From NCBI GenBank assembly GCA_045601285.1, contig JAZRZJ010000038.1, forward strand, positions 3,165 to 67,164: 64,000 nt of DNA, in the 5' to 3' direction. The notes below the pieces were generated by a model. That model was given only the letters and a program-made list of their open reading frames with translations, did no database searches and was not told the origin of the DNA. A program made the translations under genes and the position numbers. The stretch comes from Oscillospiraceae bacterium (GTDB taxonomy: Bacteria; Bacillota; Clostridia; Oscillospirales; Oscillospiraceae). Below are positions 2,718 through 62,365 of the stretch, one piece after another (position 1 is the stretch's first letter; every line of letters begins with the position of its first letter).

Positions 2718-2745
2718 AATCCCCGTACCTCACGGTACGGGGATT
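2718..2745. terminator. Bidirectional hairpin between convergent genes
   Basis: AATCCCCGTACC tcac GGTACGGGGATT, a perfect 12-bp stem. Confidence 0.7.
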
Positions 2746-2750
2746 TAGTA

Positions 2751-3092
2751 TTAGTATGCTTCTATTTCCTTAATGGTCAAATCGCGGCCCGAAAGGGGAG
2801 TGATCATATCGCTGCTGCATTCGGGACATCTGAGACAGTTGAGGTCAGCATCAAATTCCTCACCGCATTCAAGGCATTTTGCCCTGCCGATTAGCTCCTC
2901 CGCCACAAGCACGGTGCCTTCAAGCTCCGTGCCGTCAACAACGGCAACCCAGCATTCCTCCATGAAGCGCGGCACAACTCCGCTGAGGTTTCCAACCTCC
3001 ACGGTGATTTTGTTTATTCCCTCAAGCCCCTCGTCCTTCATGACGCCCCGGACCATTTTCAGCATTGCGTCACAAATACCTAACTCGTGCAT
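2751..3092 (-). CDS. hypA: HypA-like nickel metallochaperone (copy 1)
   Basis: 113 aa. Starts MHE (the HypA N-terminal Ni-binding motif) and carries a zinc site CLEC…(x12)…CPEC. Length and layout are typical of HypA/HybF. Confidence 0.8.
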   Translation of the reverse strand: MHELGICDAMLKMVRGVMKDEGLEGINKITVEVGNLSGVVPRFMEECWVAVVDGTELEGTVLVAEELIGRAKCLECGEEFDADLNCLRCPECSSDMITPLSGRDLTIKEIEAY

Positions 3093-3217
3093 GACGTCCT
3101 CGCAAATTCCATATCATTCGCTTCCATGTGAACATGAAAGCTCACTCATTCCATTGCTCGTCCTCTTCGGAGCAAACCCGCTGTGCCGGGTTTTGCTCCG
3201 AGAATTCAGAAGACGGA

Positions 3218-5848
3218 TTACTTGGTAATCTTTTCGACAGCCTTGTTTACGGCAATCTTTGCGGTACGCTTCACCATGCCCTCAACCATCTTGATGGGCA
3301 GAGTTTCAAAGGTGCCTGCGTGCCAGTTGCGAACCTTCTTCAGCTTGATTGCGTCAAACTTGCACTTTGTGGTACAGAGACCGCAGCCGATGCAGAGATA
3401 TTCGTCAACCTTGGTGGCACCGCAGCCCAGGCAGCGTGCGGTTTCCTTGCGAACCTGCTCCTCGGTGAAGGTGACACGGGAATCGGCAAAGCTCTTTGCC
3501 TTTTCTGCGTTGTAGCCGCGTACCTGACGGTGCTCGTGGTCGAAGCCGCCGACACCTACAAGTGCTGCGTCCTTGTCGAGAGCACGGTAGATCCTGCGGT
3601 CACGGCCCATGGTGAGAGTCTGACCGGGATGTACATAGCGGTGCAGGGAAATTGCTGCTTCCTTGCCTGCCGCGATTGCGTCAATTGCAAACTTGGGACC
3701 GGTGTAGCAGTCGCCGCCAACAAAGATGTCGGGCTGTGCGGTCTGATAGGTGAGGGCGTCTGCAATGGCTGCGCCCTTTTCAGTGGTCTTGAGCTCGCCC
3801 ACGTCCAGATTGCCCCAGTCGATGCGCTGACCGATGGCGGCAATGACGGTATCACACTCAACCTCGCCCTTGTCGCACTTGAGAGCGCAGACCTTGCCGC
3901 TCTTGCCTACGATTTCAACGGGCTTGTACTCGAATACGAACTTTACGCCCTCTTCCTTTGCCTCTGCAACTTCCTCGGGATCGGCGGGCATATCGGATTC
4001 CTTGCGGCGATAAACAACGGTTACATCGTCGCACAGGCGTACTGCGGTGCGGGCAACGTCCATGGCAACATTGCCGCCGCCGACGACGACAACCTTCTTG
4101 CCGACCTTTACCTTATTGCCGAGGTTGACTTCGCGCAGGAAGTCGATGCCGCCGAACACACCCTTGAGCTCCTCACCGGGAACACCGAGAGGCGCGGCCT
4201 TCTGTGCGCCGATTGCAAGGTAGAAGCCCTTGTAGCCTTCTTCACGGAGCTGCTGAATGGTGATGTCCTTGCCCACTTCAACGCCGCACTTGAACTCAAC
4301 GCCCATTTCTCTGAGAACGTCGATTTCCGCATTCAGAGCGTCCTTCTCAAGACGGAAGGCAGGAATGCCGAGAGTCAGCATGCCGCCGGGAACGGGGTTG
4401 CGGTCAAATACGGTTACGGGGTAACCCTTGTTTGCAAGGTAGTAGGCACAGCTCATGCCCGCAGGACCTGCACCGATGATTGCGATTTTTTCGGTGTAGG
4501 GACGTCCGATCTGGTTCACCATCTTGGGAACGAAGCGGGTTTCGGCGCTCATGTCATGGTCAGCGATGAAGCGCTTTACCTCGTCGATTGCAACTGCCTC
4601 GTCAACTTTGCCGCGGGTGCATTCAGCCTCACAGCGCTTGTTGCAGATTCTGCCGCAGACTGCGGGGAAGGGGTTCTCCTTCTTGATAAGCTCGAGAGCC
4701 TCGGTGTATCTGCCCTGGGCCGCCAGCTTCAGATAACCCTGAACGGGAACGTGAGCGGGGCAGGCCACCTTACAGGGAGCGGTGCCGCTGGGGAGGGTAT
4801 CCTCGCGGTTCTCGCGGTAGTCGGGATTAAATGCCTTCTTGACGAAGACGGTGTCGGTGATTTTTACATAGTCGGGTGCGGAGGTGTCTGCCGTGGAGCA
4901 GAGCTTCTGACCGAGCTTCAGCGCGTTGCCGGGGCAGACCTCAACACACTGTGCGCAGGCAACACACTTTGCCTCGTCAACCACCGCAACATAGTTGGAG
5001 CGGATCGCATCGCGGGCGCCGAACATCATGCCGGCACGCAGACCGAAGCAGGCGCAGGAGCAGCAGTTGCAGATTGCAGCGCTGTCGCCGGCTTCCTCGA
5101 TGTTGGGGATATCGTGCATGAGGCCGTTTTCCTCGGCGCGCTTGATAACCTCGAGTGCCTCCTCCTTGGTGATCTGCTTTGCACGTCCGGAACGGATGTA
5201 ATGCTCGGCACCCTTGCCCATCTGGATGCACATATCCTCGTCCAGATGTCCGCAGCCGTCACCGATGCTGGTGCGGGAGGCACGGCAGGAGCAGGGGGAC
5301 AGAGAGAAGGTGTCGTACTTGTTCAGGTAATAGCTGAGCTTTTCAAACTCGTCCGCATCGGGATTGTCCTTGATGGCGCTCTCAACGGGAATAACACGCA
5401 TGAGTCCGTAGCCGTCGGGGAGCATGGGTCCGAGGGACTGCATACGCAGACGGGTGTATTCCTCAAATGCGCGGCCGACTTCGGGGTGAGTCTTCAGCAG
5501 CTCCTGATTGTTTACCATCATTTCCAGAATGCCGGGAGCGAAGATCTGCAGGAAGTAAACGTCCTGACCTGCTTCAGCACTGTAGGTGCGGCGGAAAACG
5601 CCGTAGTAAACAAGGTTGTCCAATGCGGGCATGATCTCCTCAACGGTCTTGCCCACTTTCTTTGCCAGCCAGGGTGCCGTGCGCTCCTTACGCAGACCTG
5701 CGGCAATGGCGATGTCAGCTTCAAAATCGCTGACGATATCGGCCATGCAGTAGTACTCGGGAGTATTCTCGTCAATCTTCACCAGAAGACCGGAGGGTCC
5801 GCCGATGACCTTGGCGAGCTTGACTATCTTGGGTCTTAACTGTGCCAT
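3218..5848 (-). CDS. Multi-domain Fe-S flavoprotein: N-terminal Cys-cluster domain, ferredoxin motif, GltD/NfnB-like NAD(P)H:FAD module, C-terminal ferredoxin (paralog A)
   Basis: 876 aa with an AAGGAGA RBS. Motifs: SPCSCR…ICNCCSCAC, KCVACAQCVEVCP, GTAPCKVACPAH…AVCGRICNKRCEAECTRG (GltD-type Fe-S), IIGAGPAG (FAD), VVGGGNVAMDVARTA (NAD(P)H), CLGCGAT…CIGCGLCTTKC. Confidence 0.8.
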   Translation of the reverse strand: MAQLRPKIVKLAKVIGGPSGLLVKIDENTPEYYCMADIVSDFEADIAIAAGLRKERTAPWLAKKVGKTVEEIMPALDNLVYYGVFRRTYSAEAGQDVYFLQIFAPGILEMMVNNQELLKTHPEVGRAFEEYTRLRMQSLGPMLPDGYGLMRVIPVESAIKDNPDADEFEKLSYYLNKYDTFSLSPCSCRASRTSIGDGCGHLDEDMCIQMGKGAEHYIRSGRAKQITKEEALEVIKRAEENGLMHDIPNIEEAGDSAAICNCCSCACFGLRAGMMFGARDAIRSNYVAVVDEAKCVACAQCVEVCPGNALKLGQKLCSTADTSAPDYVKITDTVFVKKAFNPDYRENREDTLPSGTAPCKVACPAHVPVQGYLKLAAQGRYTEALELIKKENPFPAVCGRICNKRCEAECTRGKVDEAVAIDEVKRFIADHDMSAETRFVPKMVNQIGRPYTEKIAIIGAGPAGMSCAYYLANKGYPVTVFDRNPVPGGMLTLGIPAFRLEKDALNAEIDVLREMGVEFKCGVEVGKDITIQQLREEGYKGFYLAIGAQKAAPLGVPGEELKGVFGGIDFLREVNLGNKVKVGKKVVVVGGGNVAMDVARTAVRLCDDVTVVYRRKESDMPADPEEVAEAKEEGVKFVFEYKPVEIVGKSGKVCALKCDKGEVECDTVIAAIGQRIDWGNLDVGELKTTEKGAAIADALTYQTAQPDIFVGGDCYTGPKFAIDAIAAGKEAAISLHRYVHPGQTLTMGRDRRIYRALDKDAALVGVGGFDHEHRQVRGYNAEKAKSFADSRVTFTEEQVRKETARCLGCGATKVDEYLCIGCGLCTTKCKFDAIKLKKVRNWHAGTFETLPIKMVEGMVKRTAKIAVNKAVEKITK

Positions 5849-6070
5849 ATGTAATTCTCCTTTTTGGGTTATTTTTTTGACTTACTATTATAATTATATC
5901 ATCGCTCATCATAAAATCAATCGGAAGATATGATAAAAAAACCGTTTTGTCATTTATGGCAAAAGCTTATACATGATAATAGACATATTGCACAGTATGT
6001 TATGACAACCTGAGCGGCAAATAATTGTCGAAATCAAGTTAAAAACCTCACAATGTGTATTTTTTGTATA

Positions 6071-6098
6071 TTGAAATTTTATTTAAATGTGTTATACT
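6071..6098 (+). promoter_or_regulatory. Sigma-A-type promoter for paralog B
   Basis: TTGAAA, 16 nt, then TGtTATACT (extended -10), about 55 nt upstream of the start codon. Confidence 0.5.
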
Positions 6099-6154
6099 TA
6101 TCGTTGGTGTAAAATAAAAAATGTAATTTTATATACATTTGAAAGGAGTACATA

Positions 6155-8827
6155 ATGGTAACCAACAAAGAGAAACTATTTAAACTCGGCAAAAAGATGA
6201 CTGACCGTGCCATGCAGATGCTTGGCATCGAGAAGATCACCGAAGCAGATCCCGAATACTGGGGTCTGTGCAACATCCTTGATGACGACATGGTCGACAT
6301 CGCACTCAAGATGCCCAAGAACCGCGTTCCCGTGACCCTCGATGAGATGGTCAAGAAGACCGGTTGGGAAAAGAGCAAGCTCGATGCAAAGATGCAGGAA
6401 ATGAGCGAGATCGGCATCATCGAGTACAACTGGGAGAATGATACTCACACCAAGCAGTACATTCTGCCCCGTTTCGTTCCCGGTGCAGCAGAGTTCCTGA
6501 ACATGAAGCAGAAACAGATCGAGAAGTACCCCGAAGTTACCGAATTCTTCAACAATATGGCTCGTCTTCCCCTGGAAGGCATCACCCAGCTCGTTCCTCC
6601 CGGCGGCTCCGGCGTAGGTATGCACGTTATCCCCGTGGAGAAGGCAATTGCCCACGAAAGCAAGTCTGTTTCCGTTGAGCATCTGTCCCACTGGCTGAAG
6701 AAGTATGACTACTACGCAATCGGCCGCTGCTCCTGCCGTACTGTTGAATCCTTCAACGGCCGCGGCTCCGGCGATATGCCCGAGTACTGGTGCATCGCTG
6801 TGGGCGACTGCGCACGATACTGCGACGAAACCGGCAAGGACGGCATCTCCAACGCCTCCTACGAGCAGGTTATGGAAGTTCTGCAGCGCGCAGAGGAAGA
6901 GGGCTACGTACATCAGATCACCAACATCGACGGCGAGGAAAAGATTTTCGCAATCTGCAACTGCGCTCTCGGTGTCTGCTACGCTCTCCGTACCAGCCAG
7001 CTCTTCAATACCCCCAACCTTTCCGCTTCCGCTTACCGCGCACACGTCGAAACCGAGAAGTGCGTAGCCTGCGGCAAGTGCGTCGAGGTCTGCCCCGCAG
7101 GTGCTGCAAAGCTCGGTCAGAAGCTCTGCACCAAGTCCGGCCCCATCGAATATCCCAAGTTCCCCAACCCCGCAGACACCAAGTGGGGCAAGCACATGTG
7201 GGAAGAGGATTACAAGAACAAGAATCAGATCAACTGCTACGATACCGGTACAGCTCCCTGTAAGACCGCATGTCCCGCACATATCGCAGTTCAGGGCTAC
7301 ATCAAGATGGCAGCAGAAGGCCGCTACCGCGACGCTCTTGCTCTCATCAAGCAGGATAACCCCTTCCCCGCAATCTGCGGCAGCATCTGCAACCGCCGCT
7401 GCGAAGACGCCTGCACCCGCGGCACCGTTGACCAGCCCGTTGCTATCGACGAAATCAAGAAGTTCATTGCTGCTCAGGAACTGAACGAAAAGGATCGCTA
7501 CATTCCCGACCGCCGCACCAGAAGACTCTCCAAGGAAGACTACGAGGAGAAGATCGCAGTTATCGGTGCAGGTCCCTCCGGTCTGAGCTGTGCATTCTAT
7601 CTGGCAAAGATGGGCTACCCCGTGGTAGTTTATGATAAGAACAAGGTTCCCGGCGGCATGATGACTCTGGGTATCCCCAGCTTCCGTCTGGAGAAGAACG
7701 TTGTCAAGGCTGAAATCGACGTGCTCAAGAAGATGGGCGTAAAGTTCAAGATGGGCGTTGAGGTCGGCAAGGACATCACCATTCAGCAGCTGCGTGAGCA
7801 GGGCTACAAGGGCTTCTACGTTGCAATCGGCGCACAGAAGAGCGCAAAGCTCGGCGTTGAGGGCGAAGACCTTGCAGGCGTTCTCGGCGGTATCGACTTC
7901 CTGAAGGAAGTCAACCTCGGCAACGAAGTCAAGCTCGGCAAGAAGGTCGCAGTTATCGGCGGCGGCAATGTTGCAATGGACGTTGCACGTACCGCAATCC
8001 GCCTCGGCGCAGACGTAACCGTCGTTTACCGCCGCAAGGAATCCGATATGCCCGCTGACCCCGCTGAAGTTGCAGAAGCCAAGGAAGAGGGCGTCAAGTT
8101 CGTATTCGAGAACAAGCCCGTTGAAATTCTCGGCAAGGACGGCAAGGTTGTCGGCCTGAAGACCGACAAGGGCGAATACAAGTTCAACAATGTTATCGCT
8201 GCAATCGGCCAGAAGATCGAATGGGGCGAGCTGGATACCGGCGCTATGGAAAAGGGCGAAAAGGGCAATGCTGTTGCAGACGGCTTCACCCTCCAGACCG
8301 CACAGCCCGACATCTTCGTCGGCGGTGACTGCCTCACCGGTCCCAAGTTCGCAATTGATGCTATCGCAGCAGGTAAGGAAGCAGCTGAGTCCCTGCACCG
8401 CTACGTACATCCCGGCCAGAGCCTCACTCTTGCACGTAACCGCCGCGACTTCATCGAGCTCAACAAGCAGGACATCGTTCTGGGCGTTGAGAGCTTCGAC
8501 AAGCCCGGCCGTCAGGTTCCCGGCAAGGATCTCAAGAAGGCAAAGACCATGAAGGACGACCGTCTGACCTTCACCGAAGATCAGGTCAAGAAGGAAGCTT
8601 CCCGCTGCCTCGGCTGCGGTGCCACCATCGTTGACACCAACCGCTGCATCGGCTGCGGCCTCTGCACCACCCGCTGCGAATTTGACGCGGTCCACCTGTC
8701 CCGCGATGTTAAGGACGGTGCCGTCATGCGCACCTCCGAAGGCAAGTTCGGCGGCATCGTACCTTACATGGTAAAGCGTGCCGGCAAGATCGCCATCAAG
8801 GACATCAAGGCAAAGCTCGGTAAGTAA
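6155..8827 (+). CDS. Multi-domain Fe-S flavoprotein, paralog B of 3218-5848
   Basis: 890 aa with a GAAAGGAG RBS and the same domain order as paralog A. Long identical peptide runs include GVEVGKDITIQQLRE, DVTVVYRRKESDMPADP, EVAEAKEEGVKFVFE, QTAQPDIFVGGDC and TGPKFAIDAIAAGKEAA. Confidence 0.85.
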   Translation: MVTNKEKLFKLGKKMTDRAMQMLGIEKITEADPEYWGLCNILDDDMVDIALKMPKNRVPVTLDEMVKKTGWEKSKLDAKMQEMSEIGIIEYNWENDTHTKQYILPRFVPGAAEFLNMKQKQIEKYPEVTEFFNNMARLPLEGITQLVPPGGSGVGMHVIPVEKAIAHESKSVSVEHLSHWLKKYDYYAIGRCSCRTVESFNGRGSGDMPEYWCIAVGDCARYCDETGKDGISNASYEQVMEVLQRAEEEGYVHQITNIDGEEKIFAICNCALGVCYALRTSQLFNTPNLSASAYRAHVETEKCVACGKCVEVCPAGAAKLGQKLCTKSGPIEYPKFPNPADTKWGKHMWEEDYKNKNQINCYDTGTAPCKTACPAHIAVQGYIKMAAEGRYRDALALIKQDNPFPAICGSICNRRCEDACTRGTVDQPVAIDEIKKFIAAQELNEKDRYIPDRRTRRLSKEDYEEKIAVIGAGPSGLSCAFYLAKMGYPVVVYDKNKVPGGMMTLGIPSFRLEKNVVKAEIDVLKKMGVKFKMGVEVGKDITIQQLREQGYKGFYVAIGAQKSAKLGVEGEDLAGVLGGIDFLKEVNLGNEVKLGKKVAVIGGGNVAMDVARTAIRLGADVTVVYRRKESDMPADPAEVAEAKEEGVKFVFENKPVEILGKDGKVVGLKTDKGEYKFNNVIAAIGQKIEWGELDTGAMEKGEKGNAVADGFTLQTAQPDIFVGGDCLTGPKFAIDAIAAGKEAAESLHRYVHPGQSLTLARNRRDFIELNKQDIVLGVESFDKPGRQVPGKDLKKAKTMKDDRLTFTEDQVKKEASRCLGCGATIVDTNRCIGCGLCTTRCEFDAVHLSRDVKDGAVMRTSEGKFGGIVPYMVKRAGKIAIKDIKAKLGK

Positions 8828-8890
8828 TTTCAATTAAATAAGCGCTGACTGATTTTTCAGTCAGCGCTTATATCCCCGGAGGAAAAATCC

Positions 8891-9235
8891 ATGCATGAGC
8901 TTGGAACAGTTAATTACGTAATTGAAGAAGTGGAAAAGCTGGTTGAGGAGAACAATCTCAGTGTTGTTGCTGCCGTCACCCTGCAGATAGGCGAGGTTTC
9001 CGGCATAGTTCCCGAGTACATTGTTGACTTCTGGAACTGGGCAAGAAAAAAGACCAGATATCTTCAGGATACTGAGATGAAGGTCGAGAAGATCGACGCC
9101 GTTACCTACTGCGAAAATTGCGGAAAAACTTACGAAACCCTGAAATACGCAAAGATTTGCCCCTACTGCAAGAGTGAGGATACCTATCTCATTCAGGGCA
9201 ATGAATACGTAATAAAGGAAATAGAGGCCATGTAA
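8891..9235 (+). CDS. hypA: HypA-like nickel metallochaperone (copy 2)
   Basis: 114 aa. Starts MHE, with CENC…(x12)…CPYC. GGAGGAAAAA RBS. Confidence 0.8.
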   Translation: MHELGTVNYVIEEVEKLVEENNLSVVAAVTLQIGEVSGIVPEYIVDFWNWARKKTRYLQDTEMKVEKIDAVTYCENCGKTYETLKYAKICPYCKSEDTYLIQGNEYVIKEIEAM

Positions 9236-9253: not shown

Positions 9254-9480
9254 AAGCCCCGACGAAAGTCGGGGCTTCAGCCTGTAGACAAAGTATAGAT
9301 TTGTCATTGCGAACCAGTGACCGATGTCACTGGTGTGGCAATCCGTTTCCCCTGAAAGCTCTGATATATCAATGTTTTTCAAAGAGAACGGATTCCCACG
9401 ACCAGTCTGCGGACTGGTCTCGGAATGACAGGATCGGGGGTTTGTCTACACCTTGAAGCCCCGACGAAAGTCGGGGCTTG
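9254..9480. repeat. ~227-bp long imperfect palindrome (MITE-like element)
   Basis: Outer arms 9254-9292 and 9442-9480 (AAGCCCCGAC-GAAA-GTCGGGGCTTCA..TGTAGACAAA) and inner arms 9302-9346 and 9388-9431 (TGTCATTGCGA…GGCAATCCGTT) are reverse complements. The centre is near 9367. Confidence 0.85.
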
Positions 9481-9510
9481 TTTTTATGTGTAGTTACTAC
9501 GCAGCAAAAA

Positions 9511-9596
9511 CTGTCATTCTGAGGAGCACAGCGACGAAGAATCTCCTGCGGCGACAAATATAATTGGGGATTCTTCGCTTCGCTCAGAATGACACG
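9511..9596. repeat. Family-A hairpin repeat (GTCATTCTGAGGAGC…GACGAAGAATC / GATTCTTCGC…CTCAGAATGAC)
   Basis: Internally self-complementary arms. The left arm (41 nt) is identical to 46561-46601, and the same unit occurs at 18645-18919. Confidence 0.9.
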
Positions 9597-9809
9597 GTGA
9601 TGGTTTATTAGATTCAGTTATTCTTTCACTGTTCACTATTAAATCAAATGATCCGCCAGTCATCTTTGACAAGGGGACCATGAGGGGAAGCGGATTGCTC
9701 TGAATCCTGATCCTATAATAAAACTTTCCGAACATACTTGCACTTTTTGAGCCAATTTGATAAAATACTATATCAGCAAAATTGATAATCAGAAAAGGAA
9801 GTTTGTCAT

Positions 9810-10553
9810 ATGAAAAAGTATGTATTCTACTTCAGTCCCACCGGCGGCACCAGATTTGCGGCAGTTGAGCTTGCAAAGGCTCTTGAAGCTGACGAAATTG
9901 ATATCACCGTCCGCTGCCTTGAGATGAACATGTCCAAGGACGATCTGGCAATTTTCTTTGTCCCCGTTTACGCAGGCCGCATTCCCATTCCCGTGCATGA
10001 GCGCCTGAGTCACATCAAGTGCGACAATACTCCCGCAATCCTCGTTGCCTGCTACGGCAACCGCGCAGTTGACGACGCTCTGCTTGAGATGAGCGATCTT
10101 GTAAAGAGAAAGGGCTTCCGCGTGGTCGGCGGCGCAGAGATGATTACTCCCCATGCCTTCAATCCCGAGGTCGGCAAGTTCCGTCCCGATGAGGACGAGC
10201 GCAAGCAGCTGCTTGACTTCGTGGGTAAGGTCATTGCCCAGCCCGAGATGAAGGACGTCCAGATGCCCGGCGATCCCGCGTATAAGGACAAGAAGCCCGC
10301 GAAGCTGCCTCTGTACCCCAAGCCCGCTAAGGAATGTATCGGCTGCGGTATCTGCTTCAACAACTGCCCCATGCACGCCATCAGCGACGTTAAGATGAAG
10401 GTCAAGAAGCAGTCCTGCATCAGCTGCATGCGCTGTATTGACATGTGCTCCACCTCCTCCCGCCATCTGCCCAAGTACCAGGAAATCATGGCAAAGGGTG
10501 CTGCATTTGCAATGGGCGGACTTAAGAAGAAAAAGCCCAAATTCTATATGTGA
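9810..10553 (+). CDS. Flavodoxin-like domain fused to a 2x[4Fe-4S] ferredoxin domain
   Basis: 247 aa. N-terminal flavodoxin-like fold signature (FYFSPTGGT), then CIGCGICFNNCP and CISCMRCIDMC. Confidence 0.75.
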   Translation: MKKYVFYFSPTGGTRFAAVELAKALEADEIDITVRCLEMNMSKDDLAIFFVPVYAGRIPIPVHERLSHIKCDNTPAILVACYGNRAVDDALLEMSDLVKRKGFRVVGGAEMITPHAFNPEVGKFRPDEDERKQLLDFVGKVIAQPEMKDVQMPGDPAYKDKKPAKLPLYPKPAKECIGCGICFNNCPMHAISDVKMKVKKQSCISCMRCIDMCSTSSRHLPKYQEIMAKGAAFAMGGLKKKKPKFYM

Positions 10554-10560
10554 TTACATA

Positions 10561-10592
10561 AAAATCCACCGTTCACTGACGGTGGATTTTTT
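10561..10592. terminator. Bidirectional intrinsic terminator
   Basis: AAAATCCACCG…CGGTGGATTTTTT between convergent genes. Confidence 0.8.
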
Positions 10593-10594
10593 AT

Positions 10595-10861
10595 TCATAT
10601 TTCTATTATATAGAGATTGTCATTTTCAAGTGCGGTGTCATTCAGCACCCGCATAAGCTTTTCAAAGCTTATGCCCAGTCGGTCATATAGAATATCGCTT
10701 TCCGCTATGGTTATGCTTGTTTCCTCGGAAATATCCCCCAGACAGTCATGGAGTGCGTCAAGATTCATACCGTAGTAGTCGGGAAAACCCAGCGTGTCGG
10801 CAAGCTTTTCGTGAATGTCGGCAATGCAGCAGATTTCGGAGCCTTTAATTGTTATATTCAT
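10595..10861 (-). CDS. Barstar-family ribonuclease inhibitor
   Basis: 88 aa with the barstar signature …FPDYYGMNLDALHDCL…. The start overlaps the barnase stop (ATGA). Confidence 0.85.
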   Translation of the reverse strand: MNITIKGSEICCIADIHEKLADTLGFPDYYGMNLDALHDCLGDISEETSITIAESDILYDRLGISFEKLMRVLNDTALENDNLYIIEI

Positions 10862-11352
10862 GGTGTTTCCTCCCCGTAGAGAAGCTCAAAGGTTTTGTAA
10901 TGGTCCCCGGTGTAGTAGATGAGTCCGTCGTTTGAGAATACAATGCGCTTTGCGCCGCGGCTGTCCGCGCCGAGCGTATCAATATCGCATTCGGTGTAGC
11001 TCCTGCCGGGTGCTTCGGGAAGAATACCCTCGTAATTACCGAAGTAGCTTCCACCGATGCACTTGCCGGGAGCGTAGGGCTCAAGGCTGCCGCCGGGCCA
11101 GCCAAGCGACTGCGCCTGCTTCTTGGTGATGAAGTTGTCAGGCAGATGACCGTAGGTGTGGATAAATAATGCAACGTCTTCCTTGGTTGTATAGACGCCG
11201 TGCTCATCAAGCTTTGCGGGTTCGGTTTCCACAGGCTCGGTTACAACAGGAAGAGTCTGAACGGGATCATCTTCGTTGCCGATATTAGCGGCGCAGGCCG
11301 CAAGGGAAAACAGCGCCAGCAGGACAAGAATAAGAGATAGCAGTTTTTTCAT
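10858..11352 (-). CDS. Barnase-family secreted ribonuclease with lipoprotein-type signal
   Basis: 164 aa with a lipobox LAAC. Aligns by eye to barnase (…YGHLPDNFITKKQAQSLGW…, GKCIGGSYF, …YTECDI…, RGAKRIVF, GDHYKTF), with the catalytic Glu, Arg and His positions retained. Confidence 0.85.
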   Translation of the reverse strand: MKKLLSLILVLLALFSLAACAANIGNEDDPVQTLPVVTEPVETEPAKLDEHGVYTTKEDVALFIHTYGHLPDNFITKKQAQSLGWPGGSLEPYAPGKCIGGSYFGNYEGILPEAPGRSYTECDIDTLGADSRGAKRIVFSNDGLIYYTGDHYKTFELLYGEETP

Positions 11353-18446: not shown

Positions 18447-18548
18447 GGGGCGGAGCGCCATAGGGATTAATAGGCTTTGAACGGACCTTTTCCGCCCATA
18501 CTTTATCAAAAATCCGGCAATGCGTCAGCATTGTCGGATTTTTGTTAT
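18447..18548 (+). repeat. Family-D dispersed repeat carrying a terminator hairpin
   Basis: GGGCG…ATAGGGA..AATAGG.TTTGAACGGA.CTTTTCCGCCCATACTT…CCGGCAATGCGTCAGCATTG.CGGATTTTTG. Related copies are at 24941-25045, 46095-46165 and 46290-46403 (inverted). Confidence 0.8.
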
Positions 18549-18573
18549 ATTTTCCGGACGAAAAATTTTTCAC

Positions 18574-18620
18574 CCAAAACTGCCAGTTGCACCACTGTAG
18601 GGAACAGGCTTGCCTGTTCC
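18574..18620. repeat. Family-C repeat (left flank of the tandem array)
   Basis: CCAAAACTGCCA..TGCACCACTGTAGGGAACAGG…CCTGTTCC. A 47-nt near-identical copy is at 18965-19011. Confidence 0.85.
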
Positions 18621-18644
18621 ACCCCATGAAAGCTAAGCCCCGCC

Positions 18645-18919
18645 TGTCATTCTGAGGAGCCTGTGACGAAGAATCCCCAACGAACAGGGGGATTCTTCGC
18701 TTCGCTCAGAATGACAGGATTGGATGTACTCCGCAGCAAAAGAACTGTCATTCTGAGGAGCCTGCGACGAAGAATCCCCAACGAACAGGGGGATTCTTTG
18801 CTTTGCTCAGAATGACAGGATTGGATGAACTCCGCAGCAAAAGAACTGTCGTTCTGAGGAGCCTGCGACGAAGAAACCCCAACGAGCAGGGAGATTCTTC
18901 GCTTTGCTCAGAATGACAG
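18645..18919. repeat. Tandem array of three 101-bp family-A hairpin units
   Basis: Units start at 18645, 18746 and 18847. Each contains self-complementary arms TGTCATTCTGAGGAGC…GACGAAGAATCCCC / GGGGATTCTTCGC…CTCAGAATGACA. There are a few substitutions between units. Confidence 0.9.
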
Positions 18920-18964
18920 TTATAGGGATGCTGTGCGTTCGGACGGTCAAGACCGTTCCCTACG

Positions 18965-46094: not shown

Positions 46095-46403
46095 AAAAAA
46101 GCACCGCCCAAGGGCGCTCTCACTTAGGGATTAATAGCCCTGAAAGGAGCTGTTTTTCCGTAATACATCGTTAAAAATGCTCGGAATACATAACCAGTAT
46201 TCCTGCGCTTTTCGCCTTGTCTTACGAAAAAACATCAATCTCTCAGGGTGCGAAGCAGTTTTGAGCGAGAGATTTTTCGTTCAGACAAAATAACAAAAAC
46301 TCGGCAATGCTGACGCATGCCGAGTTTTGTTATGAAGTATGGGCGGAAAAGATCCGTTCAAAACCTATTCCTCCCTATGTGAGAGCGCCCAAGGTGCTTT
46401 TTT
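46095..46403. repeat. ~300-bp composite palindromic (MITE-like) element with family-D arms
   Basis: 46095-46165 is roughly the reverse complement of 46335-46403 (AAAAAAGCACC…GGGCGCTCTCAC.TAGGGA..AATAG…TTTTCCG). Nested inverted repeats lie inside (GGAATAC/GTATTCC, CGAAAAA…TCTCTC/GAGAGA…TTTTTCG, terminator hairpin CTCGGCAATGC…GCATGCCGAG). Confidence 0.8.
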
Positions 46404-46560
46404 GCGTGTTCGGCGGGAGCAAGCCCCCGCCCTACGCGGAGAATCGGAACTTATTTACTTGAAAAAGAAGGCGGATTGCCACGGCGCAAGCGCCTCGCAA
46501 TGACTGTTGAAAAAAGCGGAGCGATGTGGGCATCGCTCCCTACGGGAAACGTCAAAAAAA

Positions 46561-46691
46561 CTGTCATTCTGAGGAGCACAGCGACGAAGAATCTCCTGCG
46601 GAGATGTGGTTTGAGGGGATTCTTCGCTGGCGCTCAGAATGACAGGGTGGCTTGAGGGGATTCTTCGCTGGCGCTCAGAATGACAGGGTGG
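46561..46691. repeat. Family-A hairpin repeat with its right arm duplicated in tandem
   Basis: The left arm 46561-46601 is identical to 9511-9551. The right arm TTGAGGGGATTCTTCGCTGGCGCTCAGAATGACAGGGTGG occurs twice (46611-46650 and 46652-46691). Family-B and family-C hairpins lie at 46418-46550. Confidence 0.85.
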
Positions 46692-46708
46692 TTTTAGGCA
46701 AATAATCA

Positions 46709-47227
46709 CTATATATTCAATCCGTCGAATTTATTCCTTGCTGCGAACATATGAGAAATAAGCGTCTTGAAGAAGGGTATAAACCTGCCCTCGTCAATCA
46801 TGGAGAGAATTTCCTCCTCGCTTGCCCAGCGGGCGTCCATGACCTCCTCGGGCTGAAGCTGCAGGTTTTCTATATCTATATCCATGTTCATGAGATATAT
46901 GTCGTCAAAGCCGTTCTCAAAATTGATTGTGAAGTGGGGGCGAACACCCGTGAAATCCACATCAATGCCGATTTCCTCAAGCAGCTCACGGTGAGCAGCG
47001 TCACGGCTGGTTTCCCCTGCGATTACGCTGCCGCCCACGGAAATATCCCAGTATTTGCCCCAGCTTTTCCAGGGCTGGCGCTGCTGAATGAGCATTTCGC
47101 CTTTTGAGTTGAAAATACATACGTGTATGACAAGGTGCATATCGTCCTTGCCGCCTTTTTCGCCGCGCTGAACGGTTTTGCCCGTGAGGTGACGATCAAT
47201 ATCGTATGCGTCCCAGCGTTCTTTCAT
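46709..47227 (-). CDS. NUDIX hydrolase
   Basis: Nudix box GGSVIAGETSRDAAHRELLEEIGI. The ATG at 47227 (MKERWDAY…) is preferred over the ORF-track start at 47299. Confidence 0.8.
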   Translation of the reverse strand: MKERWDAYDIDRHLTGKTVQRGEKGGKDDMHLVIHVCIFNSKGEMLIQQRQPWKSWGKYWDISVGGSVIAGETSRDAAHRELLEEIGIDVDFTGVRPHFTINFENGFDDIYLMNMDIDIENLQLQPEEVMDARWASEEEILSMIDEGRFIPFFKTLISHMFAARNKFDGLNI

Positions 47228-59138: not shown

Positions 59139-59332
59139 TTTCAGCCTTAAAAGCCCGCTTCGGCGGGCTTTTGATTTTTACTACAAAAATTAAAACAAAT
59201 AACGGTAATATATCTAAATAATATCGAAGAAAATTTACAATTTGGCATATTGCAGGTTTACGTAATGTGTGATAATATATAAAGAGCTTATTTAAATTGT
59301 ATAATTTTAAAACAATACAAGGGGGAAACACT

Positions 59333-62300
59333 ATGAAAAAACGTGTTATCAGCTTTGTGTTGGTTGTTCTGATGCTTGCAACTTTGATGCCCTTCGGAGC
59401 TTTTGCTCTGGGCGATATTGCAGTCACAAAACAGCCCACATCCCAAACGGTATATGCGGGTGAAACCGCAGTATTTCAGTTTGAGGCAAAAAGAACCGGC
59501 ACACTCACCGGAGGAGATGTCAATTACCTTTGGTTTGATGCCGACGAAATTGATTTGAGCGGACTGGACTTCTTGCTTAAGATTTCCGCTGTTCTGAACA
59601 AGGCGCTGGACACAGACGAGACACTTGTGCTTAATAATGTAACGTCCGATATGGACGGAATGAATATCCGCTGTGCCGCGTGGTATGTGGACGGCCTGAA
59701 CAAGAGAGGCATTGTTCTCAGCGATACCGTTACCCTTCATGTAAAGATTCACGAGGCATGCGCTGTGCATTCCCTTGTTTATCATGCGGCGAAGGCTCCC
59801 ACCTGTATCGGTGATGGCAGCATTGAATACTGGCAGTGCGATGTATGCCACAGAATCTACATGGACAGCGCGGCAAAACTTGAAATCACCCTCAAGGACA
59901 CTGTTGTGCCTAAAGATCCTTCCGCACACGATATGGAACACCATGACCGGGTTGAGCCCACCTGCAGGAAGGACGGCAACATCGAGTACTGGCAGTGCGA
60001 GCTCTGCGGCAACAGATACGATAATCCCGAAGGAACGGGCAATACCCTGAAGCTCAGCGATATTGAAATTGATAACAGCAAAGCAAAGCATCAGCTTACC
60101 GTTGTTCCCTATAAGGCGGCAACCTGCTGCGAAGAGGGCAACAAGGAATATTACGTCTGTGATGTCTGCGGGGATTACTTCAATGCTGCAGGTACTGTTG
60201 AGTACAGCAAGAGCGATGTTAAGCTTCCCGTAGTTCCTCACACCACGGCTTTCGATTATGATGAGACTTACCACTGGCAGTACTGCATCGTGTGCGGCAC
60301 CATCATTGAAAATACCACCGAAGCACACAATGATGCACAGCACAAGGCAACCTGCTGCTCCAAGGCAATCTGCGAGTGCGGCTATAAGCACGGCGATTTT
60401 GACATTGACAATCACGTAAACACAGAGATCCGCGAATTCAAGGAAGCTACCACAGAAGCACCCGGCTACACCGGTGATGTATGGTGCCTTGACTGTGGCA
60501 GAATGCTTGAAAAGGGACATGAGAGCGACCAGCTCTGCGCACATAATCTTCAGCATTTTGACGCAAAGGAAGAAGGCTGCGAACACTGCGAAGACGGCGG
60601 CATCGGCAATATTGAATACTGGTACTGCGACAAGTGCGGCTGCTACTTCACTGATGAAAACGCAAAAAATGAAGTAAGCGCAGATGATGTTTTCATCGAG
60701 GCTCACCCCCATTACATATCATTTTTCGGTGAGACTACCGCAAATATTTCAATCCAGCAATATGCATACAATTCAGTAGGACACTGGAAAGAATGCAAAT
60801 ACTGCCATTATCAGTATAACGTACCTTCCTCTCATACATTCATTTCTCTGAATATATACACCTGCTGCAGCGGTAACACCTGCCTTGCCTGCGGCTATGA
60901 CGACGGTCAGCGCAACCCCGGCAATCACGTGGGCGGAACTGAAATCGTGGGTGTCTGTGAGCCCGAAGACACGAATCCCGGCTACACCGGTGATACAGTA
61001 TGCCTTGGCTGCGGAGAGATTCTGCAGAAGGGTTGGGAATACTATCCCGTATGCGAGGACGGCAAATGCGCCGACCACCTGAAGCATATTGCAGCAGTTC
61101 CCGGCACCTGCACCGCAGACGGCACTCTGGAGCACTGGCAGTGCGTGAAGTGCGGCAATATCTACATGGACGCAAAAGCAACCATTCCCGGCGATAAGGA
61201 CACCATTGTTGATGAATGCACCGGACATGAGCTCCACCCCGGTTCCGATGCCCTCAGTTCCGTTGACATTATTTCCCTTGCAAGCAGAATGGGCTGGGAA
61301 GTAAACGATATACTTGCAATTATTGGAAGCGGCAACTTCTCTGAGCTTTCTTTAATCAACGTCGATGATTTTCTTGACAAAATAACAGTTGCGGACATCG
61401 ACCATTGCCACGATGACACATATCATTGGCTCGGCTGTCAGAAGTGCGGCAAGAGCTTTGCGGATATCCGCGATGAACTTGAGAAGCAGGGACTCTACAT
61501 TAACGAAAAGTGGTATCAGCTCAGCGAAAAGCAGGAGCACAGCGGCGGCCATGCAACCTGCTGCACCAAAGCGGTTTGCGATGTATGCGGTGAAGAATAC
61601 GGCGAAATCGGCGATCACGAGTATGAAAAGGTTGTGATTCCCGCAACCTGCACCGAGCCCGGCTGCATTAAATATGTCTGCACCGGCTGCGGACTTGTTG
61701 ACGAAAGCCGCACAGAAAGCTTCCCCGCACTTGGCCACCAGTACGAGAAGGGCGTCTGCACCCGCGTTGACTCTGACGGACATCAGTGCGGTGCAAGAGT
61801 CACCAATCCGTTCTGGGACGTAAGCAATAAGGATCAGTATTACACCGCAATCATGTGGGCATATACCTATGACCCGCAGATTACCTCGGGTACTGATGAA
61901 ACACACTTCAGCCCCAGCTCCCCCTGCACTCGCGGTCAGGTTGTAACGTTCCTCTGGCGTGCCGCAGGCCGTCCGGAACCCGCAAGCCTTAATAATCCCT
62001 TCAGCGATGTGTTCAGCACCGGCGCCTGCGCACCCTTCTACAAGGCAATTCTGTGGGCAGCAGAGCAGGGAATAACCACCGGCTACAATGACGGAACCTT
62101 CAAGCCCAGCAAGACCGTTTCCCGTGCAGAGTTCGTAACATTCCTCTGGCGTTACTTTGGTGAGCCCGCCTCAAGAGGAAGCGTTGCAGGCTTTGCCGAT
62201 GCAGCCTCAATAGCAACACCCTTCCGCGCGGCAGTTGCATGGGCTGTTGAAAACGGCATCACCACCGGCTATCAGGACAATACCTTCCGTCCCAATGTAA

Positions 62301-62365
62301 CCTGCAATCGCTGGCAGGTAGTTATGTTCATGTACCGCGCCATCGGCGAAGGCAAGGCATACTGA
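59333..62365 (+). CDS. Large secreted SLH-anchored protein built from repeated Cys-rich (CxxC) modules
   Basis: About 1010 aa from MKKRVISFVLVVLMLATLMPFGAFA (signal peptide). N-terminal Ig-like segment, at least 10 Cys-rich repeats (e.g. TC..DG.IEYWQC..C...Y), then three C-terminal SLH repeats (FWDVSNKDQYY…, FSDVFSTGAC…, FADAASIATPF…). Confidence 0.8.
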   Translation: MKKRVISFVLVVLMLATLMPFGAFALGDIAVTKQPTSQTVYAGETAVFQFEAKRTGTLTGGDVNYLWFDADEIDLSGLDFLLKISAVLNKALDTDETLVLNNVTSDMDGMNIRCAAWYVDGLNKRGIVLSDTVTLHVKIHEACAVHSLVYHAAKAPTCIGDGSIEYWQCDVCHRIYMDSAAKLEITLKDTVVPKDPSAHDMEHHDRVEPTCRKDGNIEYWQCELCGNRYDNPEGTGNTLKLSDIEIDNSKAKHQLTVVPYKAATCCEEGNKEYYVCDVCGDYFNAAGTVEYSKSDVKLPVVPHTTAFDYDETYHWQYCIVCGTIIENTTEAHNDAQHKATCCSKAICECGYKHGDFDIDNHVNTEIREFKEATTEAPGYTGDVWCLDCGRMLEKGHESDQLCAHNLQHFDAKEEGCEHCEDGGIGNIEYWYCDKCGCYFTDENAKNEVSADDVFIEAHPHYISFFGETTANISIQQYAYNSVGHWKECKYCHYQYNVPSSHTFISLNIYTCCSGNTCLACGYDDGQRNPGNHVGGTEIVGVCEPEDTNPGYTGDTVCLGCGEILQKGWEYYPVCEDGKCADHLKHIAAVPGTCTADGTLEHWQCVKCGNIYMDAKATIPGDKDTIVDECTGHELHPGSDALSSVDIISLASRMGWEVNDILAIIGSGNFSELSLINVDDFLDKITVADIDHCHDDTYHWLGCQKCGKSFADIRDELEKQGLYINEKWYQLSEKQEHSGGHATCCTKAVCDVCGEEYGEIGDHEYEKVVIPATCTEPGCIKYVCTGCGLVDESRTESFPALGHQYEKGVCTRVDSDGHQCGARVTNPFWDVSNKDQYYTAIMWAYTYDPQITSGTDETHFSPSSPCTRGQVVTFLWRAAGRPEPASLNNPFSDVFSTGACAPFYKAILWAAEQGITTGYNDGTFKPSKTVSRAEFVTFLWRYFGEPASRGSVAGFADAASIATPFRAAVAWAVENGITTGYQDNTFRPNVTCNRWQVVMFMYRAIGEGKAY

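Follow-up and report, generated by a model that had tools for sequence, protein, structure and literature searches.

What does a HypA-like nickel metallochaperone do in a place where there is no hydrogenase for it to mature? The question is raised by positions 2751–9235 of a 64-kb stretch of contig JAZRZJ010000038.1 of an Oscillospiraceae bacterium (the whole stretch of 64,000 nucleotides is called the window below), in which two genes encoding large Fe-S flavoproteins, A and B, stand head to head and each is followed by a gene for a small HypA-like protein. A first-pass annotation, made from the letters alone, was unable to place this arrangement in any described system. This has to be revised, as exactly this enzyme family is the subject of Kronen et al. 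2023 (mSystems; PMC10134865). The kind is already known, as a published hypothesis, and the locus is a further member of it; proteins A and B very probably belong to the IsrA-like ('clade 9') family of putative nickel-dependent alkene reductases. The four open reading frames (ORFs), the AT-rich spacer and the mirror order were recovered just as first described, and the locus comprises the following features:

2718..2745, minus strand: terminator-like hairpin with a 12-bp stem, closing the A module
2751..3092, minus strand: hypA-like gene A (hypA-A), 113 amino acids (aa), of the subtype accompanying A-type enzymes
3218..5848, minus strand: IsrA-like Fe-S flavoprotein A, 876 aa, with the majority 'A-type' ligand set
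5849..6154, no strand: spacer between the large genes, a 306-bp AT-rich divergent control region
5920-5893, minus strand: promoter-like site for A (TTGATT/TATAAT, TG extension, 10/12 matches)
6071-6098, plus strand: promoter-like site for B (TTGAAA/TATACT, TG extension, 10/12 matches)
6155..8827, plus strand: IsrA-like Fe-S flavoprotein B, 890 aa, with a 'B-type' ligand set
8891..9235, plus strand: hypA-like gene B (hypA-B), 114 aa, of the subtype accompanying B-type enzymes
9254..9277, plus strand: GC-rich hairpin directly 3' of hypA-B, probably the B-module terminator, with an identical copy at 9456-9479

The enzymes and their HypA-like partners

Proteins A and B are 52% identical overall, and in Pfam both match Fer4, Fer4_20, Pyr_redox_2 and a C-terminal Fer4 (Fer4_20 and Pyr_redox_2 scores of 78.4 and 134.8 bits for A, and of 77.1 and 119 bits for B). 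The parts of protein A are:

aa 1-288 (window 4985-5848, minus strand): Cys-rich N-domain
aa 295-305: ferredoxin motif CxxCxxCxxxCP
aa 356-435: Fer4_20
aa 454-728: FAD (flavin adenine dinucleotide)/NAD(P)H module
aa 819-829: C-terminal CxxCxxCxxxC

Residues ~350-740 of the large proteins align at E values of 1e-42 to 1e-106 with solved chains of NfnB, GltD and dihydropyrimidine dehydrogenase (DPD) and with the GltD-like part of 9bov_A and 8oh5_C, the match to the GltD, NfnB and DPD chains extending over residues ~297-812; for the module of Fer4_20 and Pyr_redox_2, relatives in the PDB gave E values of 1e-56 to 1e-106. What is shared with GltD, NfnB and the N-terminal module of DPD is the combination of Fer4_20 with the FAD/NAD(P)H module, to which the window proteins add an N-terminal Cys-rich domain of ~290 aa and a C-terminal ferredoxin. 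They differ from GltD and NfnB also in that the window neighbourhood yielded no gene for a partner subunit (GltB or NfnA) and that none of the curated NCBIfam GltD/Nfn equivalog cut-offs was reached (the best model, PRK12771, gave 428.8 bits against a cut-off of 516). The motifs and identical runs quoted in the first-pass annotation, including the difference between CNCCSCAC in A and CNCALGVC in B, are all present, and its GltD/NfnB-type module, ferredoxin motifs and Cys-rich N-domain were confirmed. The profile check that it had proposed for all four proteins returned the HypA, oxidoreductase and ferredoxin domains and failed to identify the N-domain, since residues 1-288 matched no Pfam family.

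The N-domain of protein A carries nine Cys and two His as putative ligands (C186, C188, C199, H201, C207, H245, C260, C262, C263, C265, and C267). Six of these Cys, and H245 with them, do not vary among 75 full-length genome sequences or between any of the subtypes, and the nine conserved Cys together with H201 and H245 occur in 73 of the 75. Within this set, C199, H201, C263, and C265 are replaced only in window B and its ortholog in L001, a syntenic relative (metagenome-assembled genome JAUMWD010000007.1); protein B has S, D, A, and G at these positions, and its N-domain retains six Cys and one His, i.e., the CxC motifs C192/C194 and C268/C270, two further Cys and the His. The spacing of the two CxC motifs is 74 residues in A (186/188 to 260/262) and 74-76 across A and B. 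A predicted model of residues 1-335 (predicted local distance difference test score, pLDDT, of 80; residues 1-270 confident) holds a winged-helix sub-domain weakly resembling MarR/TFE folds. A Foldseek search with this model gave 0 matches at E <= 1e-3, and the N-domain profile compared with PDB sequences found a TFE-like winged helix as its sole match (E = 1.1e-3).

These features correspond closely to those reported for IsrA, the putative isoprene reductase of Acetobacterium wieringae ISORED-2, a 901-aa protein whose first ~270 aa have no predicted domain, followed by four canonical [4Fe-4S] sites and a FAD/NAD(P) module, and whose 'Cys6' site includes two CxC motifs, 180/182 and 254/256 (PMC10134865). 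Common to IsrA and the window proteins are the length of about 900 aa, the N-domain of ~270-290 aa without annotation, the subsequent order of ferredoxin, Fer4_20, FAD/NAD(P)H module and C-terminal ferredoxin, a strictly anaerobic host, a directly adjacent hypA, and a Cys6 site with two CxC motifs, the 74-residue spacing of which is identical in window A. The domain order, the Cys6 site with its two CxC motifs and the adjacent hypA were found for both window genes. Among 988 IsrA homologs, hypA was located near 73% and hypB near 56%, within five genes, with TetR and DUF5692 as further recurrent neighbours (PMC10134865); HypB, DUF5692, and TetR recur beside the relatives of the window genes as well, where GntR/FCD regulators were additionally seen.

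There are also differences. The isr operon consists of five genes, i.e., isrA, hypA, hypB, a gene for a 350-aa N-domain ferredoxin, and a second hypA, an arrangement unique to A. wieringae ISORED-2 and strain Y (PMC10134865), whereas the window has two separate enzyme-hypA pairs with neither hypB nor an N-domain ferredoxin and is not an operon of the five-gene isr type. Moreover, window B lacks 4 of the 11 Cys/His ligand positions conserved in the A-type of IsrA-like proteins, and a link to isoprene exists only for the Pelotomaculum and A. wieringae proteins; other Acetobacterium homologs, of 47-49% identity, showed no isoprene reduction (PMC10134865).

The family is a large one. A search with the N-domain gave 1,678 cluster representatives at E <= 1e-3, a single 90%-identity cluster comprising 1,353 members, and such proteins are common in gut, rumen and sediment anaerobes. 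The source annotations call the enzymes just 'FAD-dependent oxidoreductase' or 'glutamate synthase-like', and for the partners they give 'hydrogenase maturation HypA'. Stand-alone N-domain matches of ~355-362 aa were also noticed (P0342, P0344, P0351, P0353, P0360, P0364, P0368, and P0377); judging by their length, they may represent the form of the 350-aa isr ferredoxin, in which case the N-domain would be a separable module. Several homologs (P0018, P0122, P0046, and P0121) end in adapter-derived peptides (e.g., ...CLLYTSDAADE and ...SYTHLTLPT) and come from chimeric or truncated metagenome assemblies, because of which the database matches to the ~880-aa proteins are almost all limited to 300-550 aa. 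A gene split throughout the family, as the matches of ~500 aa might suggest, was ruled out, the tails being contig ends, frameshifts and adapter chimeras.

Both small proteins are true, though divergent, HypA-fold proteins. The Pfam HypA profile (PF01155) scored 98.3 bits for hypA-A and 101.2 bits for hypA-B against a cut-off of 28.9, over profile positions 1-111 of 112. Each begins with MHE, the nickel-binding motif, and H2 and E3 are 100% conserved in 71 IsrA-linked HypA-like sequences, as are the zinc-site residues C73, C76, C89, and C92 of the two CxxC pairs (71/71). When the predicted model of hypA-A (pLDDT 94.1) was compared with the PDB by Foldseek, all 14 matches at E <= 1e-3 were HypA and nothing else was significant; the best of them was HypA of T. 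kodakarensis (3a43_B; template modelling score, TM, of 0.84, root-mean-square deviation of 2.4 Å), a protein whose sequence similarity to the window proteins reaches only E = 2.5e-3, and others showed HypA bound to HypB or to the large subunit of a hydrogenase. Profile, motifs and, for hypA-A, fold agree, therefore, with the earlier assignment to the HypA family. PF01155, the MHE terminus, the twofold CxxC zinc site and the fold are shared with HypA/HybF of hydrogenase and urease systems. In contrast to these, the window proteins are 22-26% identical to the solved HypAs and fall below the NCBIfam equivalog cut-offs, their client is not a hydrogenase and no hypB-F genes lie nearby, and they form subtype-specific lineages that track the IsrA-like partner.

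To examine the linkage across genomes, an alignment of the N-domain only was scanned against one genome per species and 80 loci were kept out of at least 401 relatives, the neighbours being called from our own ORF calls and hidden Markov models (HMMs), and the HypB-like calls verified as PF02492. Of 68 evaluable genes, 63 are followed directly by a HypA-like ORF on their own strand, in taxa including Oscillospiraceae, Lachnospiraceae, Clostridium, Sporomusa, Treponema, Bacteroidota, and Chloroflexota. The median stop-to-stop distance from the large gene to hypA is 357 nt, about the length of hypA itself, and at many loci the hypA start overlaps or abuts the stop codon of the large gene. The one-to-one pairing noted in the first reading of the window is thus conserved far beyond chance. 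The reverse check gave the same picture, as the HypA-like proteins P0484 and P0543, retrieved by a HypA search, are encoded right after IsrA-like genes of 893-897 aa. HypB-like genes flank 31 of 68 loci in a clade-dependent manner (3 of the 30 loci closest to A versus 29 of the 42 more distant ones). GntR/FCD regulators, DUF5692 membrane proteins and EFR1-type ferredoxins are other recurrent neighbours; at B-type loci hypA is present as well, mostly accompanied by hypB and DUF5692, and TetR or GntR regulators lie nearby.

Several genomes hold more than one module, each with its own hypA: head to head in the window, convergent in L092, and in tandem in L023. In L092 (3314-11468; also in L093), a contig reached through the reverse check, two full IsrA-like and hypA modules are separated by genes for an acyl-ACP thioesterase and a polysaccharide deacetylase. 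The DUF5692 multi-pass membrane protein (PF18948), absent from the window, is tightly linked at L085:11134-12180, L086:3331-4380, L062:8297-9277 and 18 other loci; in B-type operons it lies between hypA and hypB, and it could be a metal or substrate transporter.

A putative nickel site and the competing explanations

Domain content, conserved ligands, HypA fold, adjacency, co-divergence, mosaic structure and purifying selection can be read directly from the data. A mechanism built on them must be worded conditionally, its electron path being borrowed from the solved GltD/NfnB/DPD relatives and from the published IsrA model, and the nickel, its Cys6/His destination and the class of substrate being likewise extrapolated. 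NAD(P)H would bind to the GltD/NfnB-type module and reduce FAD, from which the two [4Fe-4S] clusters in Fer4_20 would take up electrons and pass them on through the ferredoxin-type [4Fe-4S] clusters. The electrons would end at a metal site in the N-domain, formed by the six invariant Cys (with the two CxC motifs) and the invariant His, where the substrate, which may be an unactivated C=C bond if isoprene reduction is taken as the model, would be reduced. The HypA-like protein encoded downstream would act as a dedicated metallochaperone, delivering MHE-bound nickel to this site during maturation.

The scheme follows the proposal that the Fe-S chain ends at the Cys6 site ('cluster V'), into which nickel is inserted by HypA and HypB (PMC10134865). 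In A. wieringae, isoprene strongly induces IsrA, HypA2, and HypB (PMC10134865), and in Pelotomaculum it raises hypA ~373-fold and hypB ~585-fold (2026 preprint). The acetyl-CoA synthase A-cluster and the double-cubane/P-type clusters were put forward as analogies of the Cys6 site (PMC10134865); the likeness consists of Cys-X-Cys motifs and a Cys-rich pocket ending an Fe-S chain and is one of analogy only, as neither the sequence profile nor Foldseek (E <= 1e-3) found a similarity of the N-domain to the A-cluster or double-cubane proteins.

The relation of chaperone and client, suggested already in the first-pass annotation, is the best reading of the pairing in 63 of 68 loci and of the confirmed HypA family membership. 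Taken as a whole, an IsrA-family reductase served by a dedicated, co-diverged HypA that loads nickel at the Cys6/His site is what we moderately favour; for nickel insertion by HypA as such, the chances appear slightly short of even.

A number of observations weigh against this interpretation. Five of the 68 loci with downstream DNA have no HypA. HypB, which normally hands nickel over to HypA, is absent from the 64-kb window (HMM, E < 1e-5) and occurs near only the 3 of 30 closest loci mentioned above. The NCBIfam HypA equivalog TIGR00100 was not reached by either small protein (69.1 and 64.3 bits for hypA-A and hypA-B against a cut-off of 88.1), and all other NCBIfam HypA models likewise scored below their cut-offs. 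The Cys-rich half of the N-domain has no solved relative, either by fold (Foldseek) or by profile. The placement in clade 9 is based on shared features and the neighbourhood signature and not on a tree, IsrA (VUZ27132.1) having been compared by its description only. A literature search gave no purified member and no biochemistry on any IsrA-like protein. Finally, the absence of a hydrogenase pertains to the 64-kb window and not to the rest of the genome.

Some of these points would suit a different role of the small protein, which might be a stoichiometric small subunit, a zinc-ribbon assembly factor, an inserter of another metal or an unusual Fe-S builder, the enzyme then working without nickel. 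The overlapping or abutting genes with their 357-nt median distance would be in keeping with a co-translated subunit, neither the window nor most of the close relatives have HypB, the scores stay below the curated HypA cut-offs, and the co-divergence of HypA with the partner N-domain equally fits a stable protein-protein interface. In 71 enzyme/HypA pairs, HypA identity tracks the N-domain identity of the partner with r = 0.82 (Mantel test, 0/2000 permutations). On the other hand, every one of the 71 sequences keeps the Ni-binding MHE terminus, the nickel GTPase HypB (PF02492) flanks 31 of 68 loci and the B-type operons, and the fold matches HypA as solved with HypB and with a hydrogenase large subunit. 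In the proteome of A. wieringae, the HypA encoded beside IsrA was not significantly raised by isoprene, although IsrA was strongly raised (PMC10134865), and this mismatch in abundance argues against a stoichiometric subunit. On this balance, we regard a role without nickel as rather unlikely, though it is the strongest of the alternatives.

It is improbable that A and B are ordinary enzymes of electron transfer, of the NAD(P)H:ferredoxin or Nfn/GltD type, with a redox-sensing or regulatory, and not catalytic, N-domain. Such a reading would accommodate the winged-helix sub-domain, which is of a type found in MarR/TFE regulators and is the only structural likeness of the N-domain, the strong match of the C-terminal two thirds to GltD, NfnB and DPD modules, and the EFR1 ferredoxin gene nearby. 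It is contradicted by the missing GltB or NfnA partner gene, by GltD/Nfn equivalog scores that all lie below their cut-offs, and by IsrA being the only plausible isoprene-induced redox enzyme (PMC10134865). The invariance of six Cys and one His across the subtypes and the conserved HypA/HypB linkage speak against it too, and point to a metal cofactor site.

Two old subtypes and a gene-conversion tract

The first-pass annotation regarded the locus as a duplicated module. At the DNA level, the mirror arrangement indeed appears as inverted repeats of 696 nt (78% identity), 441 nt (73%), and 262 nt (73%), and a recent in-situ mirror duplication of one enzyme-hypA module, followed by fast divergence of the N-domain and hypA, would explain why the modules are adjacent and inverted and why the C-terminal two thirds share long identical runs. 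Most of gene B nevertheless follows other lineages. Its N-domain is 0.59-0.60 identical to those of the B-type proteins of L085 and L086 versus 0.31 to A, its Fer4_20 region 0.68-0.70 to B-types versus 0.51 to A, and its C-terminus 0.57-0.60 to L085 and P0294, 0.49 to L086 and 0.48 to A. Only the FAD/NAD module shows the opposite, with 0.78 identity to window A and 0.76 to L002 versus 0.49-0.57 to other B-types. HypA-B behaves like most of its enzyme, being 93, 70, 54, 52, and 49% identical to HypAs beside B-type enzymes elsewhere and 28% identical to HypA-A, which groups with the HypAs of A-type partners. This comparison of paralogs is a more decisive test of co-divergence than the identity correlation given above.

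B-type relatives, furthermore, constitute a large separate clade, as a search with the N-domain of protein B returned at least 1000 proteins. They show several patterns at the four extra ligand positions of A (e.g., CDNN and [C/S/T][D/E]AG), all of which keep the six invariant Cys and H245. Judged by these sequence comparisons, A and B are ancient paralogous subtypes, each with a co-diverged HypA of its own subtype; the different ligand sets and matching HypAs suggest that the two enzymes probably act on different substrates.

The high similarity of A and B is confined to one part of gene B, for which a sliding window gave residues ~525-725:

7730..8374, plus strand: gene-conversion segment of gene B (aa ~526-740, FAD/NAD module)

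In this segment the amino acid identity to A is 79% versus 31-55% elsewhere in B, and over aa 526-675 B shares no more than 28-66% identity with other B-types. The synonymous divergence (dS) of A and B drops from ~1.0-1.2 to 0.62 in the core (aa 526-650), and the A-like segment coincides with the 78% inverted repeat 7540-8235 / 3804-4499. The long identical runs noticed in the first-pass annotation lie in or beside it. This pattern is one of segmental gene conversion, by which the FAD/NAD segment of B was homogenised with A as the donor before the split of the window and L001; the adjacency of the genes in inverted orientation has allowed it. With the other parts of B and its HypA grouping with foreign B-types, and with the dS drop as the signature of gene conversion, a recent duplication is very improbable, and we treat it as rejected and effectively excluded.

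The remaining alternative, that the client of the HypA-like proteins is a [NiFe]-hydrogenase, a urease or some different nickel enzyme encoded at another place in the genome and that the hypA genes stand here incidentally, would fit the fact that, to our knowledge, HypA has an experimentally established role only for hydrogenase and Helicobacter urease, but it is scarcely credible and effectively excluded by the linkage in 63 of 68 loci across Bacillota, Spirochaetota, Bacteroidota, and Chloroflexota, by the grouping of each HypA by subtype with the neighbouring enzyme, and by A. wieringae ISORED-2, where the same linkage occurs in a genome without [NiFe]-hydrogenase and without hypCDEF (PMC10134865).

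In an observation apart from the window, which has no such codon, the B-type genes L085:8001-10700, L086:157-2925, and L087:108-2876 contain a single in-frame TGA at the same codon (GGA TGA ATG). The three metagenome contigs represent two diverged lineages, and gene callers split the genes into products of ~500 and ~408 aa. In the alignment the TGA falls on the second Gly of PGGML.LGIP, a conserved motif in the FAD domain, where the close relative P0195 reads GG. A selenocysteine was rejected, given that no conserved selenocysteine insertion sequence (SECIS)-like hairpin was found and that the aligned residue is Gly and not Cys; a split gene with UGA-AUG coupling, read-through or recoding is possible.

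To the published hypothesis the locus adds two ligand-set variants that can be compared within one genome, evidence for a co-diverged HypA per enzyme subtype, and evidence for a whole clade that manages with no HypB next to it; the A/B pair, the HypB-less modules, the subtype-specific HypAs and the gene-conversion tract go beyond the known kind. If a HypA-matured reductase beyond hydrogenase and urease is real, it would be one more nickel enzyme class, of which we know of only about nine, and would widen the role of HypA. More speculatively, and with considerable doubt, the family could be a new Ni-Fe-S class, abundant in gut and rumen Clostridia, which hydrogenates unactivated C=C bonds of hydrocarbons, terpenes or lipids, with the six-Cys/one-His pocket as the nickel active site, C199/H201/C263/C265 as an accessory metal site of A only, and subtype-specific HypAs that load nickel without a dedicated HypB; if so, the window would offer a natural A/B pair for dissecting the nickel-binding ligands. 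The interest of the family would be high with nickel dependence proven, that of the locus itself being moderate. In any case, hypA in hydrogenase-free Clostridia should not be taken as a marker of hydrogenase.

Control regions and surroundings of the locus

The promoter-like sites diverge from the spacer, and together with the terminator-like hairpins they bracket each two-gene unit. AGGAG-type ribosome-binding sites are present at both ends of the spacer, the GC content of which is 25.8% versus 50.9% for the window. On these sequence features, the locus is best explained as two divergently transcribed two-gene operons, each in the order of promoter, large enzyme, hypA and terminator. The spacer is 86% identical to that of L001, with conserved ends and a variable middle. 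All four genes are functional, because the ratios of non-synonymous to synonymous divergence (dN/dS) against L001 amount to 0.055-0.10, indicating purifying selection (0.10 for hypA-A and 0.055 for hypA-B). An Rfam search of the spacer and its flanks revealed no element, riboswitch or known RNA; a NiCo riboswitch there would have supported the nickel reading.

No hydrogenase, urease, carbon monoxide dehydrogenase (CODH), HypB or nickel transporter was found in the window by a HypB HMM, motif scans and Pfam on 30 further ORFs, which, among the profiled ORFs, bears out the absence of hydrogenase, hypB, urease and CODH genes reported initially. The IsrA-like enzymes have, accordingly, no rival there as clients of the HypA-like proteins, a point in favour of the chaperone-client reading. 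The remaining ORFs were judged by eye, many of them being housekeeping-like (PGK, TPI, AckA, Obg, and L21/L27). The window also encodes a sigma factor, S-layer homology (SLH) proteins, a barnase/barstar pair, ABC-2 and other transporters, TrmO, FeoB, an EF-G-like protein, GlnA, and sporulation and housekeeping proteins. Downstream of the B module lie:

9810..10553, plus strand: EFR1-family flavodoxin-like/2x[4Fe-4S] ferredoxin (NCBIfam NF038196, 94.7 bits, cut-off 75)
10560-10591: hairpin terminator of the EFR1 gene's own

The EFR1 product had been named as a plausible electron partner in the first-pass annotation. Its gene starts 575 bp downstream of hypA-B, beyond two terminator-like hairpins, and is probably a separate transcription unit; EFR1-family genes occur near IsrA-like genes in 13 of 81 loci. 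The claim that it is a redox partner of the IsrA-like enzymes is, consequently, weakly supported.

The region between hypA-B and the EFR1 gene contains elements resembling repetitive extragenic palindromes (REP) or miniature inverted-repeat transposable elements (MITE). An identical 24-nt GC hairpin, AAGCCCCGACGAAAGTCGGGGCTT, occurs at 9254-9277 and 9456-9479, and a 49-nt repeat at 9506-9554 recurs at 46556-46604 (98%), beside a 41-nt tandem at 46606-46687. Spurious ORFs lie on these repeats (9369-9557, 9514-9735, and 46455-46709). Further repeats comprise a 101-nt tandem repeat in 3 copies at 18644-18946, flanked by a 50-nt direct repeat (18574 / 18965), and a 125-nt inverted repeat in which 18459-18583 pairs with 46255-46379 (82%).

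On the minus strand, 10595-11352 encodes a barnase-type secreted ribonuclease (PF00545, 164 aa, with a signal-peptide-like start) followed by barstar (PF01337, 88 aa), a pair also present in L001. A 1022-aa SLH-anchored surface protein with internal Cys-containing repeats ~160 nt apart is encoded at 59297-62365 on the plus strand, and a second SLH protein, at 1756-2712, adjoins an extracytoplasmic function (ECF)-type sigma factor (381-926).

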